Sequence record: PX309103.1
Length of the DNA: 39,129 nucleotides
From: a phage
Direction: 5' to 3' (one strand)
The position numbers and the translations under genes are program-made. Numbering within the stretch: position 1 is the first letter of the stretch; the number at the start of each line of letters is the position of its first letter. A model generated the notes under the pieces. That model worked only from the letters and a program-made list of their open reading frames with translations, made no database searches and was not told the DNA's origin. Below are positions 32,160 to 39,129 of this stretch, piece by piece.

Positions 32160-35100
32160 ATGTCCACGATTACACAATTCCCTTCAGGAAACACTCAGTA
32201 CAGGATTGAGTTCGACTACCTAGCCAGAACGTTTGTTGTTGTTACGCTGGTGAATAGCTCTAACCCTACCCTGAACCGTGTACTGGAAGTTGGTCGAGAT
32301 TACCGATTCCTTAATCCAACGATGATTGAGATGTTGGTTGACCAATCAGGTTTCGACATCGTTCGTATTCACCGTCAGACTGGAACTGACTTAGTGGTAG
32401 ACTTCAGGAATGGCTCAGTGTTGACAGCTAGTGACCTGACCAATTCAGAGCTTCAGGCTATCCATATTGCAGAAGAAGGTCGAGACCAAACGGTTGACTT
32501 AGCGAAGGAATATGCCGATGCTGCTAGTAGCTCTGCTGGCAACGCTAAGGATAGCGAGGACGAAGCACGACGAATCGCTGAGAGTATCAGGGAAGCTGGT
32601 CTAATTGGCTATATTACCCGTCGCTCCTTCGAGAAAGGCTACAACGTTACAACATGGAGCGAGGTCCTGCTATGGGAAGAGGATGGTGATTATTACCGCT
32701 GGGATGGTACGCTTCCAAAGAACGTTCCTGCTGGTTCAACTCCTGAAACTTCCGGTGGGATTGGATTAGGTGCGTGGGTTAGTGTTGGTGATGCTGCTTT
32801 AAGAAGTCAGATTTCAAACCCGGAAGGGGCAATACTCTACCCTGAATTACATAGAGCACGCTGGCTTGATGAAAAAGATGTCCGTGGTTGGGGTGCTAAA
32901 GGGGATGGTGTCACTGATGATACAGCAGCGTTAACGAGCGCATTAAACGACACACCGGTTGGACAAAGGCTTAATGGCAATGGGAAGACATATAAGGTCA
33001 CATCCCTGCCTGACATTAGTCGCTTCATCAACACTCGTTTCGTTTATGAGCGCATTCCCGGACAACCTCTTTATTATGTCTCTGAAGAATTTGTTCAGGG
33101 TGAGCTGTTCAAGATAACGGACACCCCTTATTACAATGCGTGGCCTCAGGATAAAGCGTTCGTATATGAGAATGTGATATATGCACCTTACATGGGTAGC
33201 GATCGTCATGGTGTTAGCCGTCTTCACGTATCATGGGTTAAGTCTGGTGATGATGGTCAAACATGGTCTACTCCAGAGTGGTTAACTGATCTGCATCCAG
33301 ATTACCCTACAGTGAACTATCATTGTATGAGTATGGGTGTATGTCGCAACCGTCTGTTTGCCATGATTGAAACACGTACTTTAGCCAAGAACGCATTAAC
33401 CAATTGTGCATTGTGGGATCGCCCCATGTCTCGTAGCCTGCATCTCACTGGTGGTATTACGAAGGCAGCAAATCAGCGATATGCAACAATCCATGTACCT
33501 GATCACGGGCTGTTCGTGGGTGACTTTGTTAACTTCTCTAACTCTGCGGTAACAGGTGTGTCAGGTGATATGAAGGTTGCAACGGTAATAGATAAGGACA
33601 GCTTCACGGTTCTTACACCTAACCAGCAGGACTCAGATTTGAATAACGCTGGAAAGAACTGGCATATGGGTACTTCATTCCATAAATCGCCATGGCGTAA
33701 GACAGATCTTGGCTTAATTCCTCGTGTGACTGAAGTTCATAGCTTTTCTGCTATTGATAACAATGGCTTTGTTATGGGTTATCACCAAGGTGATGTAGCT
33801 CCACGCGAAGTTGGACTATTCTACTTCCCTAACGCTTTCGATAATCCGGCTAACTATGTTCGTCGTCAGATACCTTCAGAGTATGAGCCAGATGCCTCAG
33901 AACCCTGCATCAAGTATTACGATGGTGTATTGTACCTCATCACCCGTGGCACTAGGAGCGATAGACTAGGTAGCTCTTTGCATCGTAGTAGAGACATAGG
34001 TCAGACTTGGGAGTCACTGAGATTTCCACATAATGTTCATCATACTACATTGCCTTTTGCTAAAGTAGGGGATGACCTTATTATGTTTGGTTCAGAACGT
34101 GCAGAAAATGAATGGGAAGCAGGTGCACCAGATGATCGTTACAAGGCATCTTATCCTCGCACCTTCTATGCACGCTTGAATGTAAACAATTGGAATGCAG
34201 ATGGTATTGAATGGGTTAACATCACTGACCAGATTTATCAGGGCGGAATAGTTAACTCAGGTGTAGGTGTTGGTTCGGTAGTTGTGAAGGATAGTTACAT
34301 CTACTACATGTTTGGTGGAGAGGACCATTTTAACCCATGGACATATGGAGATAACTCAGCGAGGGATCCATTCAAATCAGACGGTCATCCCTCAGATTTG
34401 TATTGCTACAAAATGAAGATTGGCCCAGACAATCGTGTTTCAAGGGATTTCAGGTATGGTGCTGTACCTAACAGAGCTGTTCCCGTGTTTTTTGATACGA
34501 ATGGGATTCGCACTGTTCCTGCGCCAATGGAATTTACAGGGGATTTGGGTTTAGGTCATGTGACCATTAGAGCCAGCACCAGTAGTAACATTCGCTCTGA
34601 AGTTTTAATGGAAGGTGAATATGGGTTTATCGGAAAATCTATACCGACTGATAACCCGGCAGGGCAGCGCATCATGTTTTGCGGGGGTGAAGGCACCAGT
34701 GCAACGACTGGCGCACAGATTACGCTTTATGGTGCAAATAACACCGACTCAAGGCGAATAGTTTACAACGGAGATGAGCATCTATTTCAGAGTGCTGATG
34801 TTAAGCCTTATAACGATAACGTCACTGCGCTTGGTGGGCCTAGAAACCGTTTCACCACTGCATACCTCGGAAGTAACCCTATTGTTACTTCTAACGGGGA
34901 GAGGAAAACAGAGCCGGTAGTTTTTGATGATGCTTTCCTTGATGCCTGGAGTGACGTTCACTACATCATGTACCAGTGGTTAGATGCTGTTCAACTGAAA
35001 GGCAATGATGCTCGTATTCACTTCGGGGTTATTGCTCAGCAAATTCGTGATGTATTCATTGCACATGGGCTGATGGACGAAAACAGTACGAATTGTCGTT

Positions 35101-35354
35101 ATGCTGTTCTGTGCTATGACAAGTATCCACGGATGACCGATACGGTATTTTCGCACAATGAAATCATTGAACACACTGACGAGGAGGGTAATGTCACCAC
35201 TACGGAAGAACCTGTATACACCGAGGTGGTTATTCACGAAGAGGGTGAGGAGTGGGGTGTTCGGCCTGACGGAATTTTCTTTGCTGAAGCCGCTTATCAG
35301 AGAAGAAAACTGGAAAGAATCGAAGCCAGACTTTCTGCTCTTGAACAGAAGTAA
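32160..35354 (+). CDS. Tailspike endosialidase (endo-N-acetylneuraminidase) with gp17-like N-terminal adaptor and C-terminal intramolecular chaperone domain
   Basis: 1064 aa; N-terminus FDYLARTFVVVTL resembles T7 gp17 N-domain; central region with GDGVTDDT; C-terminal domain typical of auto-cleaving chaperone domains; recalled resemblance to phage K1F endoNF. Confidence 0.9.
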   Translation: MSTITQFPSGNTQYRIEFDYLARTFVVVTLVNSSNPTLNRVLEVGRDYRFLNPTMIEMLVDQSGFDIVRIHRQTGTDLVVDFRNGSVLTASDLTNSELQAIHIAEEGRDQTVDLAKEYADAASSSAGNAKDSEDEARRIAESIREAGLIGYITRRSFEKGYNVTTWSEVLLWEEDGDYYRWDGTLPKNVPAGSTPETSGGIGLGAWVSVGDAALRSQISNPEGAILYPELHRARWLDEKDVRGWGAKGDGVTDDTAALTSALNDTPVGQRLNGNGKTYKVTSLPDISRFINTRFVYERIPGQPLYYVSEEFVQGELFKITDTPYYNAWPQDKAFVYENVIYAPYMGSDRHGVSRLHVSWVKSGDDGQTWSTPEWLTDLHPDYPTVNYHCMSMGVCRNRLFAMIETRTLAKNALTNCALWDRPMSRSLHLTGGITKAANQRYATIHVPDHGLFVGDFVNFSNSAVTGVSGDMKVATVIDKDSFTVLTPNQQDSDLNNAGKNWHMGTSFHKSPWRKTDLGLIPRVTEVHSFSAIDNNGFVMGYHQGDVAPREVGLFYFPNAFDNPANYVRRQIPSEYEPDASEPCIKYYDGVLYLITRGTRSDRLGSSLHRSRDIGQTWESLRFPHNVHHTTLPFAKVGDDLIMFGSERAENEWEAGAPDDRYKASYPRTFYARLNVNNWNADGIEWVNITDQIYQGGIVNSGVGVGSVVVKDSYIYYMFGGEDHFNPWTYGDNSARDPFKSDGHPSDLYCYKMKIGPDNRVSRDFRYGAVPNRAVPVFFDTNGIRTVPAPMEFTGDLGLGHVTIRASTSSNIRSEVLMEGEYGFIGKSIPTDNPAGQRIMFCGGEGTSATTGAQITLYGANNTDSRRIVYNGDEHLFQSADVKPYNDNVTALGGPRNRFTTAYLGSNPIVTSNGERKTEPVVFDDAFLDAWSDVHYIMYQWLDAVQLKGNDARIHFGVIAQQIRDVFIAHGLMDENSTNCRYAVLCYDKYPRMTDTVFSHNEIIEHTDEEGNVTTTEEPVYTEVVIHEEGEEWGVRPDGIFFAEAAYQRRKLERIEARLSALEQK

Positions 35355-35489
35355 TAAACAAAACCATTTTGCCATTAAGTTGGTGGGGGGTAGATGTTAG
35401 AAAGTTGCGGAGGTAGAGGCTAACTACACGCTAACCAACGTATGTAACAACTTTGGGTCACGGACGACCCGCTTTAAACTGGAGGTTTT

Positions 35490-35684
35490 ATGATTGAGTT
35501 AGACTTCAAGAATGAGGTCCTTAAAGCCTCTCCTATCGTCGGGACCGCTGCGGCTGATGGTGCCAGTCGGTTCTTCTTTGGACTTACACTGAACGAATGG
35601 TTCTACGTTGCAGCTATCGCGTACACCGTTGTCCAGATTGGTGTGCTAGTCTACAAAACGATTAAAGGAGGTGGTAAAACATGA
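35490..35684 (+). CDS. Holin (gp17.5 family)
   Basis: 64 aa; FFGLTLNEWFYVAAIAYTVVQIG matches T7 gp17.5. Confidence 0.88.
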   Translation: MIELDFKNEVLKASPIVGTAAADGASRFFFGLTLNEWFYVAAIAYTVVQIGVLVYKTIKGGGKT

Positions 35685-35944
35685 CGCAGATGGACTTAGA
35701 GAAGTTCCTCTTGATGCTTGATACTGAGCGTGCTCGACTTATGCTGCAAGACTTGCGGGATGACACTAAGCGTTCACCTCAGCTCTATAACGCCATTGAG
35801 AAGCTGCTTGCTCGTCACAACTTTGTGTTAAGTAAGGTGTCTATGGACGAGAAGACGCTGGCTGATATGGAGGCCCTGAACGCAGAGTACGATAAGGTGC
35901 TTTCAGCGACTGAGGATAATGACACAGGGTATGGTGTTCAATAA
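35681..35944 (+). CDS. Terminase small subunit / DNA maturation protein A (gp18 family)
   Basis: RSPQLYNAIEKLLARH matches T7 gp18. Confidence 0.88.
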   Translation: MTQMDLEKFLLMLDTERARLMLQDLRDDTKRSPQLYNAIEKLLARHNFVLSKVSMDEKTLADMEALNAEYDKVLSATEDNDTGYGVQ

Positions 35945-35955
35945 GTGTTAGACTC

Positions 35956-35982
35956 AAGGTCATTACTATATGTAGTGGCCTT
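35956..35982 (+). promoter_or_regulatory. Conserved hairpin, RNase III-site-like (R18.5 position)
   Basis: AAGGUCAUUAC / GUAGUGGCCUU stem with UAUAU loop; third copy of the conserved element. Confidence 0.6.
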
Positions 35983-36045
35983 TATGGTTAACACTAACTA
36001 GTGGAGGCGACTCTACGTGAAATCTGATAAACCGGGAGGGCAACT

Positions 36046-36495
36046 ATGCTCGAATTTTTAAAGAGAGCGGCTCCGTGGTTACTTGCAGCAGTGATGTTTG
36101 CTGGTGGCTACCACACCGCTAACAATAAGTGGGAGGCTAAGGTCAATGCAGAATACACCTCGAATCTTAAGGCATCGGAGGATACAAGGCTTGCTGTCCA
36201 AGCTGAAGTCAACAAAGTGTCCAAACGGTTCCAAGACGAAATGTCCTCGCTGGAAGGCAGCACTGATAGGATTATTGCTGACCTTCAGTCTGACAATAAG
36301 CGGCTGCTCATCCGAGTCAAACCTACGAGTGGAACCACGCAAAATGACGGTCGATGCTTCATTGATGGCTACGCCGAACTTGACGAACGAGATGCTAAAC
36401 GTCTTATCGCCATCGGAGTGAAAGGAGACAAGTGGATTAAGGCCCTTCAAGACACTGTGAGAGCCTTACAGCAAGAGAAGGAGGTGACGCATTGA
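36046..36495 (+). CDS. i-spanin (Rz-like, gp18.5 family)
   Basis: 149 aa; N-terminal TM segment; [21 protein letters not shown] and [10 protein letters not shown] match T7 gp18.5. Confidence 0.88.
36146..36421 (+). CDS. o-spanin (Rz1-like lipoprotein, gp18.7 family), embedded in the +1 frame of the i-spanin gene
   Basis: Signal peptide plus lipobox ([19 protein letters not shown]); GGGAGG RBS 9 nt upstream of ATG 36146; exact start uncertain. Confidence 0.65.
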   Translation: MQNTPRILRHRRIQGLLSKLKSTKCPNGSKTKCPRWKAALIGLLLTFSLTISGCSSESNLRVEPRKMTVDASLMATPNLTNEMLNVLSPSE

Positions 36496-38255
36496 GTAAA
36501 GACTTAGTGGCGCGTCAGGCGCTAATGACTGCCCGTATGAAGGCAGACTTCGTGTTCTTCCTGTTCGTCCTGTGGAAAGCTCTGTCACTCCCGGTCCCGA
36601 CTCGATGTCAGATTGACATGGCGAAGAAACTATCGGCTGGGGACAACAGGCGTTTCATCCTACAGGCGTTCCGTGGTATCGGGAAGTCCTTCATTACGTG
36701 TGCATTCGTGGTCTGGAAACTATGGAATAACCCAGACTTGAAGTTCATGATTGTGTCGGCCTCAAAGGAACGAGCCGATGCGAACTCCATCTTCATCAAG
36801 CGAATCATCGACCTCATGCCTCAGCTTCAGGAACTCAAACCTAAGCAGGGTCAGCGAGATGCGGTTATCAGCTTCGACGTTGGACCAGCCAAGCCAGACC
36901 ACTCACCTTCGGTTAAGTCCGTTGGTATCACTGGTCAGTTGACTGGTAGTCGTGCTGACCTCCTGATTGCCGATGACGTGGAGGTTCCAAACAACTCAGC
37001 GACTCAGGCTGCACGAGACCGTCTGTCAGAGCTTGTAAAAGAGTTCGACGCTATCCTGAAGCCGGGAGGTACAATCATCTATCTGGGTACTCCTCAGAAC
37101 GAGATGACCTTGTATCGTGAGCTGGAAGGCCGTGGATACACCACTACCATCTGGCCCGCTCGCTACCCACGCGATAAGAAGGACTGGCAGTCTTACGGCG
37201 ACCGTCTGGCACCGATGCTTCAGGCAGAGCTTGAAGAGGACCCTGAGTCCTTCTACTGGCGTCCGACCGATGAAGTACGATTCGATGATACGGACCTGAA
37301 GGAACGTGAGCTGTCCTATGGTAAAGCTGGCTTCGCTCTACAGTTCATGCTTAACCCTAACCTGAGTGATGCTGAGAAGTACCCTCTGAAGCTCCGTGAC
37401 CTTATCGTAGCCGACTTGGACCCAGCGTCTAGCCCAATGGTATACCAATGGCTTCCTAACCCTCAGAACAAGCGTGAGGACGTTCCTAACGTTGGACTCA
37501 TGGGTGACTCATACCACACGTATCAGACTGTAGGTTCTGCCTTCAGTTCGTACACCCAGAAGATTCTAGTCATTGACCCTAGTGGTCGTGGTAAGGATGA
37601 AACTGGTTATGCGGTACTGTACCAGCTAAACGGCTACATCTTCGCTATGGAAGTTGGCGGTATGCGAGGTGGCTATGAAGACTCTACGCTGGAAGCCTTG
37701 GCTAAGATTGGTCGTAAGTGGAAGGTCAACGAATACGTCATTGAGGGTAACTTCGGTGATGGTATGTACCTTGAGCTATTCAAGCCTGTAGCTTCCCGTA
37801 TTCATCCTGCTGCTGTAACTGAAGTGAAGAGTAAGGGTCAGAAGGAACTCCGCATCTGTGACGTTCTGGAGCCTATCATGGGGTCTCACCGACTTATCGT
37901 TAACGCTGCTGCTATCGTCCAAGATTACCAGTCTGCCTCTGATAAGGATGGTGTTCGTAACCCTATCTACTCTCTCTTCTACCAGATGACACGTATCTCT
38001 CGTGAACGTGGAGCATTGGCACACGATGACCGACTTGATGCGCTGGCTATCGGTGTACAGTTCTTCGTTGAGTCTATGGCGAAGGATGCCAACAAAGGCG
38101 AACGTGAAGTCACTGAGGAGTGGCTGGAAGAACAGATGGAGAACCCACGGAAAGGATTCGAGTCCATCCACACGGAGTTCTGGGACAATGGGGTCCGGGT
38201 AACTCACAATACGGACGACGAGCTAGGACTAGGGTCATACGTTACGTTTCACTAG
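36492..38255 (+). CDS. Terminase large subunit / DNA maturation protein B (gp19 family), TTG start
   Basis: 587 aa; very strong T7 gp19 similarity ([62 protein letters not shown]); the only in-frame start is TTG with AAGGAGG 8 nt upstream. Confidence 0.95.
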
Positions 38256-38350
38256 CTGAATGAATAACTATAGGCGAAAACTGAATTAATAAGCAGTTAG
38301 TAACCTATAGTTACTACCAGTCTAACCTACTGTTTTATAAGGGGTTTGGA

Positions 38351-38373
38351 CTTAACTATCACTATAGGGAAGA
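38351..38373 (+). promoter_or_regulatory. Phage RNAP promoter near right end (phiOR-like)
   Basis: TTAACTATCACTATAGGGAAG. Confidence 0.85.
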
Positions 38374-38551
38374 CCCCCGGTTACTTATAGTATTACTGTA
38401 GTGAATATACATATGCAGACTTTATGCAAGACCTTAGGAGGCAGACTCCGAGTTCTTACCTAAGGCTTGCACCGATGGACGGAGGGTGATATTAATCATA
38501 ATCCCTCCAATACAGATAGTAAAGACCATAGATACAGGAGGTATGTAGCAT

Positions 38552-38710
38552 ATGGCAAAGACCAAAGCTGTACTTAAAGCTCTGGCGACCAATCGAGCTA
38601 CATACAGGTTTCTTGCTTCTGTTCTACTTGCTGCTGGCGTTACTGCTGGAAGTCAGTGGGTCGGGTGGGTCGAGACTCTCGTATGTTCTCTGGTGTCTCA
38701 GTGTAATTAA
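38552..38710 (+). CDS. gp19.5-position small membrane protein (52 aa)
   Basis: ORF MAKTKAVLKALATNRATYRFLASVLLAAGV... with AGGAGG RBS. Confidence 0.55.
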   Translation: MAKTKAVLKALATNRATYRFLASVLLAAGVTAGSQWVGWVETLVCSLVSQCN

Positions 38711-38743
38711 CGCAATCATGGTAACGATTCATGAGAGGAAGAC

Positions 38744-38786
38744 CTAAGGTCAGTACGTGGATAAAGACTCACTGTACTGACCTTAG
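38744..38786 (+). promoter_or_regulatory. Perfect 13-bp inverted repeat hairpin downstream of gene 19.5
   Basis: CTAAGGTCAGTAC (38744-38756), 17-nt loop, GTACTGACCTTAG (38774-38786); shares the AAGGUCA 5' arm with the other hairpins. Confidence 0.6.
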
Positions 38787-38871
38787 CTACTGTAGTCAAG
38801 GACTTTAGGTAACACCTTAATAGAAGCTCACTTAGGGTCATCCTACTTATTGGTCCATCCTAGTGTCGCCT

Positions 38872-38910
38872 GACCTACGGTCCTTGACCTACAGTGGCTG
38901 TGACCTACAG
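38872..38910. repeat. Array of 3 GACCTAC(A/G)G repeats just inside the right terminal repeat
   Basis: Copies at 38872, 38886 and 38902; counterpart of the left-end CCTACAG array. Confidence 0.6.
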
Positions 38911-38949
38911 TAGTGACGATGAGTTTTGGACCAAAAGTTTGAGACCACA

Positions 38950-39129
38950 TCTCACAGTTCAAGAACCTCAAGTCTCCCCATAGGCCCTCTTTAAGTCCAG
39001 ACCAAAGGCCCTACCCCCAGTCTATCATAAGGTTGGACCGATGGTCAAGACTTCAGGTCGACGATAGGTCTAGGCTATGGCTGGAGGTTAGACGATAGGT
39101 AGGGGCTATAGGTCTGTCTCTGTGTCTCT
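38950..39129. repeat. Right direct terminal repeat (180 bp), identical to 1-180
   Basis: Read directly from sequence. Confidence 0.95.

Follow-up and report, generated by a model that had tools for sequence, protein, structure and literature searches.

The window, by which we mean the whole 39,129-nucleotide phage sequence that was analysed (PX309103.1), is a K1F-like Kayfunavirus genome of the T7-like type, linear and with direct terminal repeats. Because its first 180 bases recur exactly at the end of the window (bases 1-180 at 38950-39129, i.e., 180-bp direct terminal repeats), we regard this as a complete linear T7-like genome. In a megablast search with positions 35400-38300 as the query, 213 GenBank phage records covered at least 80% of the query, and the best matches were the Escherichia phages vB_EcoP_F (97.9%) and K1F (96.9% identical in DNA over 2.9 kb; NC_007636/AM084414 and NC_007456/DQ111067), which belong to Kayfunavirus in the Autographiviridae. 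Upstream of the junction studied here lie three genes:

32160-35354, endosialidase tailspike
35490-35684, class II holin
35681-35944, small terminase

The tailspike, the holin, the small terminase, the Rz-like gene, and the large terminase are each backed by Pfam, PHROG, or NCBIfam matches, and the order holin, small terminase, Rz-like gene, large terminase is the same as in vB_EcoP_F and K1F. The holin gene ends, and the small-terminase gene begins, within a shared ATGA (35681-35684), a four-nucleotide overlap similar in style to the TTGA at 36492-36495. Between genes 18 and 18.5, positions 35945-35994 form a stable hairpin; the folded 106-nt stretch 35945-36050 has a minimum free energy (MFE) of -33.6 kcal/mol (z=-3.1). 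T7 has a homologous hairpin at the equivalent place, the position of its RNase III site R18.5. A hairpin of this type is annotated as a rho-independent terminator in GenBank MZ726794, and an Rfam scan of 35000-39129 at E<=1 matched no family, the hairpin included.

The junction itself comprises three overlapping or abutting genes with their initiation signals:

36034-36040, + strand, GGGAGGG, the i-spanin Shine-Dalgarno (SD) sequence, 5 nt before ATG 36046
36046-36495, + strand, gene 18.5, Rz-like i-spanin of 149 aa, an ATG open reading frame (ORF) matching PHROG 1327 and annotated in K1F, T7, and others
36131-36136, + strand, GGGAGG, 9 nt before ATG 36146 and a candidate SD for the longer o-spanin precursor
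36146-36421, + strand, gene 18.7, Rz1-like lipoprotein (o-spanin), a 91-aa precursor if translated from ATG 36146, supported by Pfam, PHROG, and recoding
36191-36193, + strand, alternative o-spanin start TTG giving a 76-aa precursor, with GGAGGA upstream at 36177-36182
36257-36307, + strand, hydrophobic core of the signal peptide and lipobox I-S-G-C, placed by translation and by the hydropathy maximum at residues 38-52
36305-36418, + strand, mature o-spanin of 38 aa, corresponding to the 38-aa K1F entry in SpaninDB
36478-36487, + strand, SD AAGGAGGTGA of gene 19, inside the last codons of 18.5 and conserved in relatives
36492-36495, + strand, TTGA junction, in which the start TTG (36492-36494) lies over the i-spanin stop TGA (36493-36495)
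36492-38255, + strand, gene 19, large terminase subunit of 587 aa, matching NF033889, PF22530, and PDB 8dgc_E

The product of gene 18.5 matched PHROG 1327 ('Rz-like spanin') over residues 1-146 (E=1e-59). Its Pfam Phage_lysis score, 21 bits, fell under the cut-off of 25.4, so that similarity in sequence to lambda Rz/Rz1 is only marginal, and an NCBIfam search returned no model matching either the i-spanin or the o-spanin. The GGGAGGG ahead of the gene is the same motif that the SpaninDB supplement records for K1F 18.5 (PMC6139136). By hydropathy, the protein has a single N-terminal hydrophobic segment (maximum at residues 8-22, nt 36067-36111), a candidate transmembrane segment that would leave the remainder, including one Cys, in the periplasm, as in the inner-membrane partner of an embedded spanin pair. 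In related database records, this protein is still often named 'endopeptidase'.

The sequence-only reading had placed an Rz1-like ORF at 36146-36421, wholly embedded in the +1 frame of the Rz-like gene, and the coordinates agree: (36146-36046) mod 3 = 1, and whether the gene is taken to begin at 36146 or at 36191, it runs to 36421 inside 36046-36495 at an offset of +1. Its product matched Pfam PF17531 (O_Spanin_T7, described as 'Spanin, outer lipoprotein subunit T7-like virus') with 86.3 bits against a cut-off of 25 (E=1.4e-24), over precursor residues 30-88, and matched PHROG 4306 with E=2.8e-35. The lipobox I-S-G-C is encoded at 36296-36307, and the predicted lipidated residue, Cys54 (36305-36307), is followed by Ser (CSSE...) rather than Asp. 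Lipoproteins sorted to the outer membrane by the Lol pathway are those without Asp at +2. Because of the Ser at +2, the o-spanin would carry no inner-membrane retention signal, and its predicted destination is the outer membrane. The ISGC motif fits the lipobox consensus [LVI][ASTVI][GAS]C (PMC6139136). The SpaninDB entry for the mature K1F o-spanin is equal in length at 38 aa, has a TISG lipobox (PMC6139136), and differs from that of the window by three substitutions.

A nested frame such as this could also be a chance open frame without expression. Overlapping ORFs do arise by chance, and the gene goes unlisted in most database annotations: among nine related GenBank/RefSeq records inspected, an o-spanin is annotated in only two and is missing from seven. 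However, such gaps have been put down to a bias of gene callers against overlapping genes (Kongari et al. 2018, PMC6139136), and the two records that do list the gene, under the name 18.7 in K1F NC_007636 and o-spanin in ZG49, have it at homologous coordinates. The PF17531 and PHROG 4306 matches argue strongly against chance, as do the lipobox and the hydrophobic core, which stay conserved in relatives with identities as low as 34%. We also generated 20,000 recodings that kept the Rz protein but resampled its synonymous codons; an ATG ORF of at least 91 codons in the +1 frame appeared in 0.06% of them (P=0.0006) and a stop-free +1-frame run of at least 108 codons in 0.4%. Because recodings rarely give such length, the nested open frame does not simply follow from the Rz sequence. 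Finally, we compared 15 distinct haplotypes of the junction, obtained by a pattern scan of IMG/VR plus fetched loci, at the third codon positions of Rz, which are the second positions of the nested frame. Diversity at these synonymous sites is 0.29-0.31 outside the overlap and is suppressed to 0.17 over the core, the lipobox, and the mature o-spanin; judged from sequence variation, this drop is a signature of double coding. The chance reading is effectively refuted, and we leave it a negligible probability. The embedded Rz/Rz1-type spanin pair, first proposed from the letters of the sequence, is borne out by the family matches (PF17531, PHROG 1327, and PHROG 4306) and by the relatives.

The start of the o-spanin is ambiguous, as GenBank annotates K1F from the ATG equivalent to 36146 and SpaninDB from the codon equivalent to TTG 36191; between the two, we lean toward the ATG. 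The mature 38-aa protein is identical under either start. If translation begins at the TTG, to which we assign somewhat less than an even chance, the first 15 codons of the reported ORF fall outside the gene. SpaninDB, whose K1F family members are near-identical to the window proteins, flagged the K1F o-spanin as having a 'Too long signal sequence', and its curators shifted the start from the ATG to the TTG-equivalent codon for a good LipoP hit (PMC6139136). In the window, moreover, GGAGG lies 9 nt upstream of this TTG, that very codon is ATG in a related locus (L023), and an ATG is found nearby in T7 and 13a. Yet K1F and most relatives have a degraded SD, GGAAG, before it, K11 lacks a start codon there, and the signal peptide would still be 38 residues long. 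In every relative examined, including T7 and K11, an ATG at 36146 or an adjacent codon is accompanied by a GGAGG-type SD: the GGGAGG at 36131-36136 is identical in nine relatives, T7, K11, and 13a have AGGAGGT in its place, and SpaninDB calls the SD before the upstream ATG of K11 'perfect'. The +1 frame is also open from ATG 36146 in all relatives, though stops occur 0-2 codons upstream in several. Third-position diversity of Rz is 0.32 in the segment between the ATG and the TTG, as high as outside the overlap, and is slightly reduced (0.25) from the TTG to the core. The high value speaks for the TTG, since it gives no sign of amino-acid constraint on the +1 frame. However, because signal-peptide n-regions are not sequence-specific, such an absence of constraint is expected whether the segment is translated or not, and the diversity pattern is compatible with either start. 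There is no further ATG, GTG, or TTG between 36191 and the hydrophobic core.

With either start, the stretch ahead of the lipidated Cys is unusually long: 53 residues from the ATG or 38 from the TTG, with an n-region of 37 or 22 residues, respectively. The N-terminal extension of the precursor (36146-36256) is very basic and contains two extra Cys (C25 and C33) ahead of the core, and the T7 and K11 o-spanins have extensions alike in kind.

Downstream, the product of gene 19 matched the NCBIfam equivalog NF033889 (termin_lrg_T7) with 679 bits against a cut-off of 150, as well as Pfam PF22530 (Terminase-T7 RNaseH-like, the nuclease domain; 130 bits, E=5e-38), and residues 1-580 align to residues 1-580 of PDB 8dgc_E, 'Terminase, large subunit' (822 bits). 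TTG 36492 is the first ATG, GTG, or TTG after the upstream in-frame stop, and the GGAGG core of AAGGAGGTGA is 7 nt from it. This 10-mer is fully complementary to the 3' end of 16S rRNA, and it occurs only twice in the genome versus an expectation of 0.13. The TTG is invariant in the 15 haplotypes and in nine database records, of which eight, K1F among them, annotate it as the start. The last Rz codon, which overlaps it, varies among the haplotypes (CAT, CCT, or CGT) while the TTG stays constant. We considered whether the overlap with the Rz stop forces the TTG and ruled this out: ATGA or GTGA would preserve the stop, and haplotypes that end Rz with CCT or CGT could carry A at the shared base without changing the Rz residue, thereby gaining an ATG, yet they keep the T. 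Among more distant relatives, the homologous codon is ATG in L005, L006, and L011 and GTG in L025, L016, and T7 (e.g., 'ATG AGC AAG GAT' in L011 and 'ATG TCT AAG' in L005 and L006). Several of the resulting N-termini resemble MSKD of the window, with MSKD in L011, MNKD in L025, and MSK in L005, L006, and L016 (T7 has MSTQ), and these starts are preceded by AAGGAGG or a slightly shorter core (GGAGG or AAGGAG).

The family matches, the perfect SD at its ideal spacing, and the relatives, which supply the strongest argument, all uphold the earlier proposal that the terminase starts at TTG 36492, overlapping the spanin stop. The reason originally offered for it, that no in-frame ATG lies near the N-terminus, is wrong as worded, since the frame contains ATGs at codon 12 (36525) and codon 16 (36537) as well as a GTG at 36507. 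Thus, we accept the TTG because of the SD and the conserved position of the start codon, not because of an absence of ATG. The two ATGs raise the possibility that translation starts at one of them and that the TTG goes unused, and ZG49 in GenBank is indeed annotated from the codon-16 ATG, the only such record of the nine. Distant homologues align only from terminase residues 12-19 on, and the strongly conserved block begins at about residue 17; because codons 2-11 are variable and the distant alignments begin at 12-19, a downstream ATG start would cost no conserved sequence. Across the haplotypes, codons 2-11 have no indels and no stops, and some replacements are silent (CGT to AGA keeps Arg, and TTA to CTA keeps Leu), but variable sites number 6, 3, and 5 at codon positions 1, 2, and 3, which is not a clean coding signature. 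What suggests translation of codons 2-11 is therefore limited to individual synonymous replacements, the overall codon-position pattern being not decisive. Several other observations count against a downstream start. Neither ATG has an SD, nor does GTG 36507, whereas the 10-nt SD before the TTG would be purposeless. The codon-12 ATG is GTG in ZG49 itself. The start position and an S/N-K-D N-terminus recur in relatives that use ATG or GTG, T7 gene 19 is annotated from the homologous GTG, and the PDB construct 8dgc_E aligns from residue 1. We regard a downstream start as quite improbable. Searching the literature for mention of the start codon of the K1F terminase returned nothing relevant, the K1F genome paper (PMC1317022) being outside the coverage of that search.

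Altogether, these comparisons make it very probable, in our judgment, that the region is the 18.5/18.7/19 junction of a K1F-like phage of the T7 family, with embedded spanins and with gene 19 translated from TTG 36492. Gene 18.5 would encode an inner-membrane i-spanin anchored via its N-terminal transmembrane segment, and gene 18.7, read in the +1 frame within it, would encode a small lipoprotein precursor, whose signal peptide would be cut at ISG/C to leave a 38-residue o-spanin in the outer membrane. Homology with T7 18.5/18.7 and lambda Rz/Rz1 suggests that these spanins bridge the periplasm and disrupt the outer membrane at the last step of lysis. At the end of 18.5, the perfect 10-nt SD would recruit ribosomes to the weak start codon TTG 36492 and drive initiation there. 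Given the TTGA overlap with the 18.5 stop, ribosomes that finish 18.5 may re-initiate at the TTG as well. A weak start codon combined with a strong SD could plausibly keep the output of this catalytic packaging enzyme modest.

Folding of the RNA that surrounds the terminase start (36440-36545) does not reach significance (z=-1.1), so there is no structural support for obligatory coupling. We likewise rejected coupling based on RNA structure, given this z score and a small hairpin containing the TTG that is not conserved in L023. Folding around the o-spanin starts (36105-36235) is not significant either (z=-0.1).

The arrangement is closely matched in known systems. In K1F, the 18.5 ORF is equal in length, 18.7 is annotated at the homologous ATG, and gene 19 has the same TTG start, the same SD, and the same 4-nt overlap; the differences are a few amino-acid substitutions and the GGAAG in place of GGAGG before the alternative o-spanin TTG. 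The catalogue of Kongari et al. 2018 (PMC6139136) includes K1F 18.5/18.7 among its two-component spanins of 'embedded' architecture and assigns the i-spanin to family T7 and the o-spanin to family K11. In T7, the o-spanin is likewise nested in the +1 frame of 18.5 and has a TISGC lipobox and a long basic N-terminal extension, and gene 19 has a non-ATG start behind AAGGAGG. That start is GTG rather than TTG and lies 22 nt past the 18.5 stop, without overlap; T7 Rz has 143 aa versus 149 in the window, and the terminases are about 68% identical. As an arrangement, the junction differs from T7 only in the 4-nt overlap and in TTG in place of GTG. The prototype embedded spanin is lambda Rz/Rz1, in which the gene for a type-II inner-membrane protein harbours the lipoprotein gene in its +1 frame (PMC6139136). 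A lambda-type disulfide pattern is excluded here because the single periplasmic Cys of the T7-type pair is in the i-spanin, the o-spanin having none.

The finding is thus already known: K1F records dating from 2005-2006 annotate it, SpaninDB includes it, and T7 has a parallel arrangement. The unusualness implied by the sequence-only reading, dense overlapping coding with a non-canonical start on an essential gene, does not hold up, given that T7 gene 19 uses GTG, that K1F and seven relatives annotate TTG, and that the spanin pair is in a catalogue. As a textbook arrangement of the T7 family, the junction has little discovery value. Its value is as an annotation check: the o-spanin is missing from seven of nine records, the terminase is truncated in one, and GenBank and the spanin specialists disagree on where the o-spanin starts. 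For the engineering of K1F-like therapeutic phages, it matters that these 450 bp encode two proteins and also contain the ribosome-binding site and start codon of another gene.

Two more ambitious readings may be taken jointly: that the invariant AAGGAGGTGA-N4-TTGA module is a selected device for dosage and coupling and that the basic o-spanin extension of 22-37 residues has a function of its own. We give the pair only a slim chance. If they were true, the weak start, the perfect SD, and the overlap with any ORF that happens to lie upstream, kept even in L014 behind a different small ORF, would make terminase synthesis depend on translation of the gene before it, and the extension, which is common to T7, K11, and K1F, might, for example, slow or time the export of the lipoprotein. 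Alternatively, the o-spanin extension would be a by-product of the overlap.

Some related loci carry additional ORFs between the spanin genes and gene 19. In L014, a 53-codon ORF (1343-1504) lies between 18.5 and 19 and overlaps 18.5 by ATGA; the whole AAGGAGGTGA-N4-TTGA junction is retained, with the terminase TTG now over the stop of the 53-codon ORF. In L005 (1062-1499) and also in L006, both close relatives (terminase 97% identical), an HNH-type endonuclease ORF occupies this place. Here the terminase gene opens with ATG (MSKKTP...), and each of the two spanins ends in a different variant of its C-terminal part. Within the terminase gene of the window, an alternative-frame ORF at 37117-37299 is the counterpart of gp19.2 as annotated in K1F (37632-37799), and T7 also lists 19.2 and 19.3 inside gene 19.
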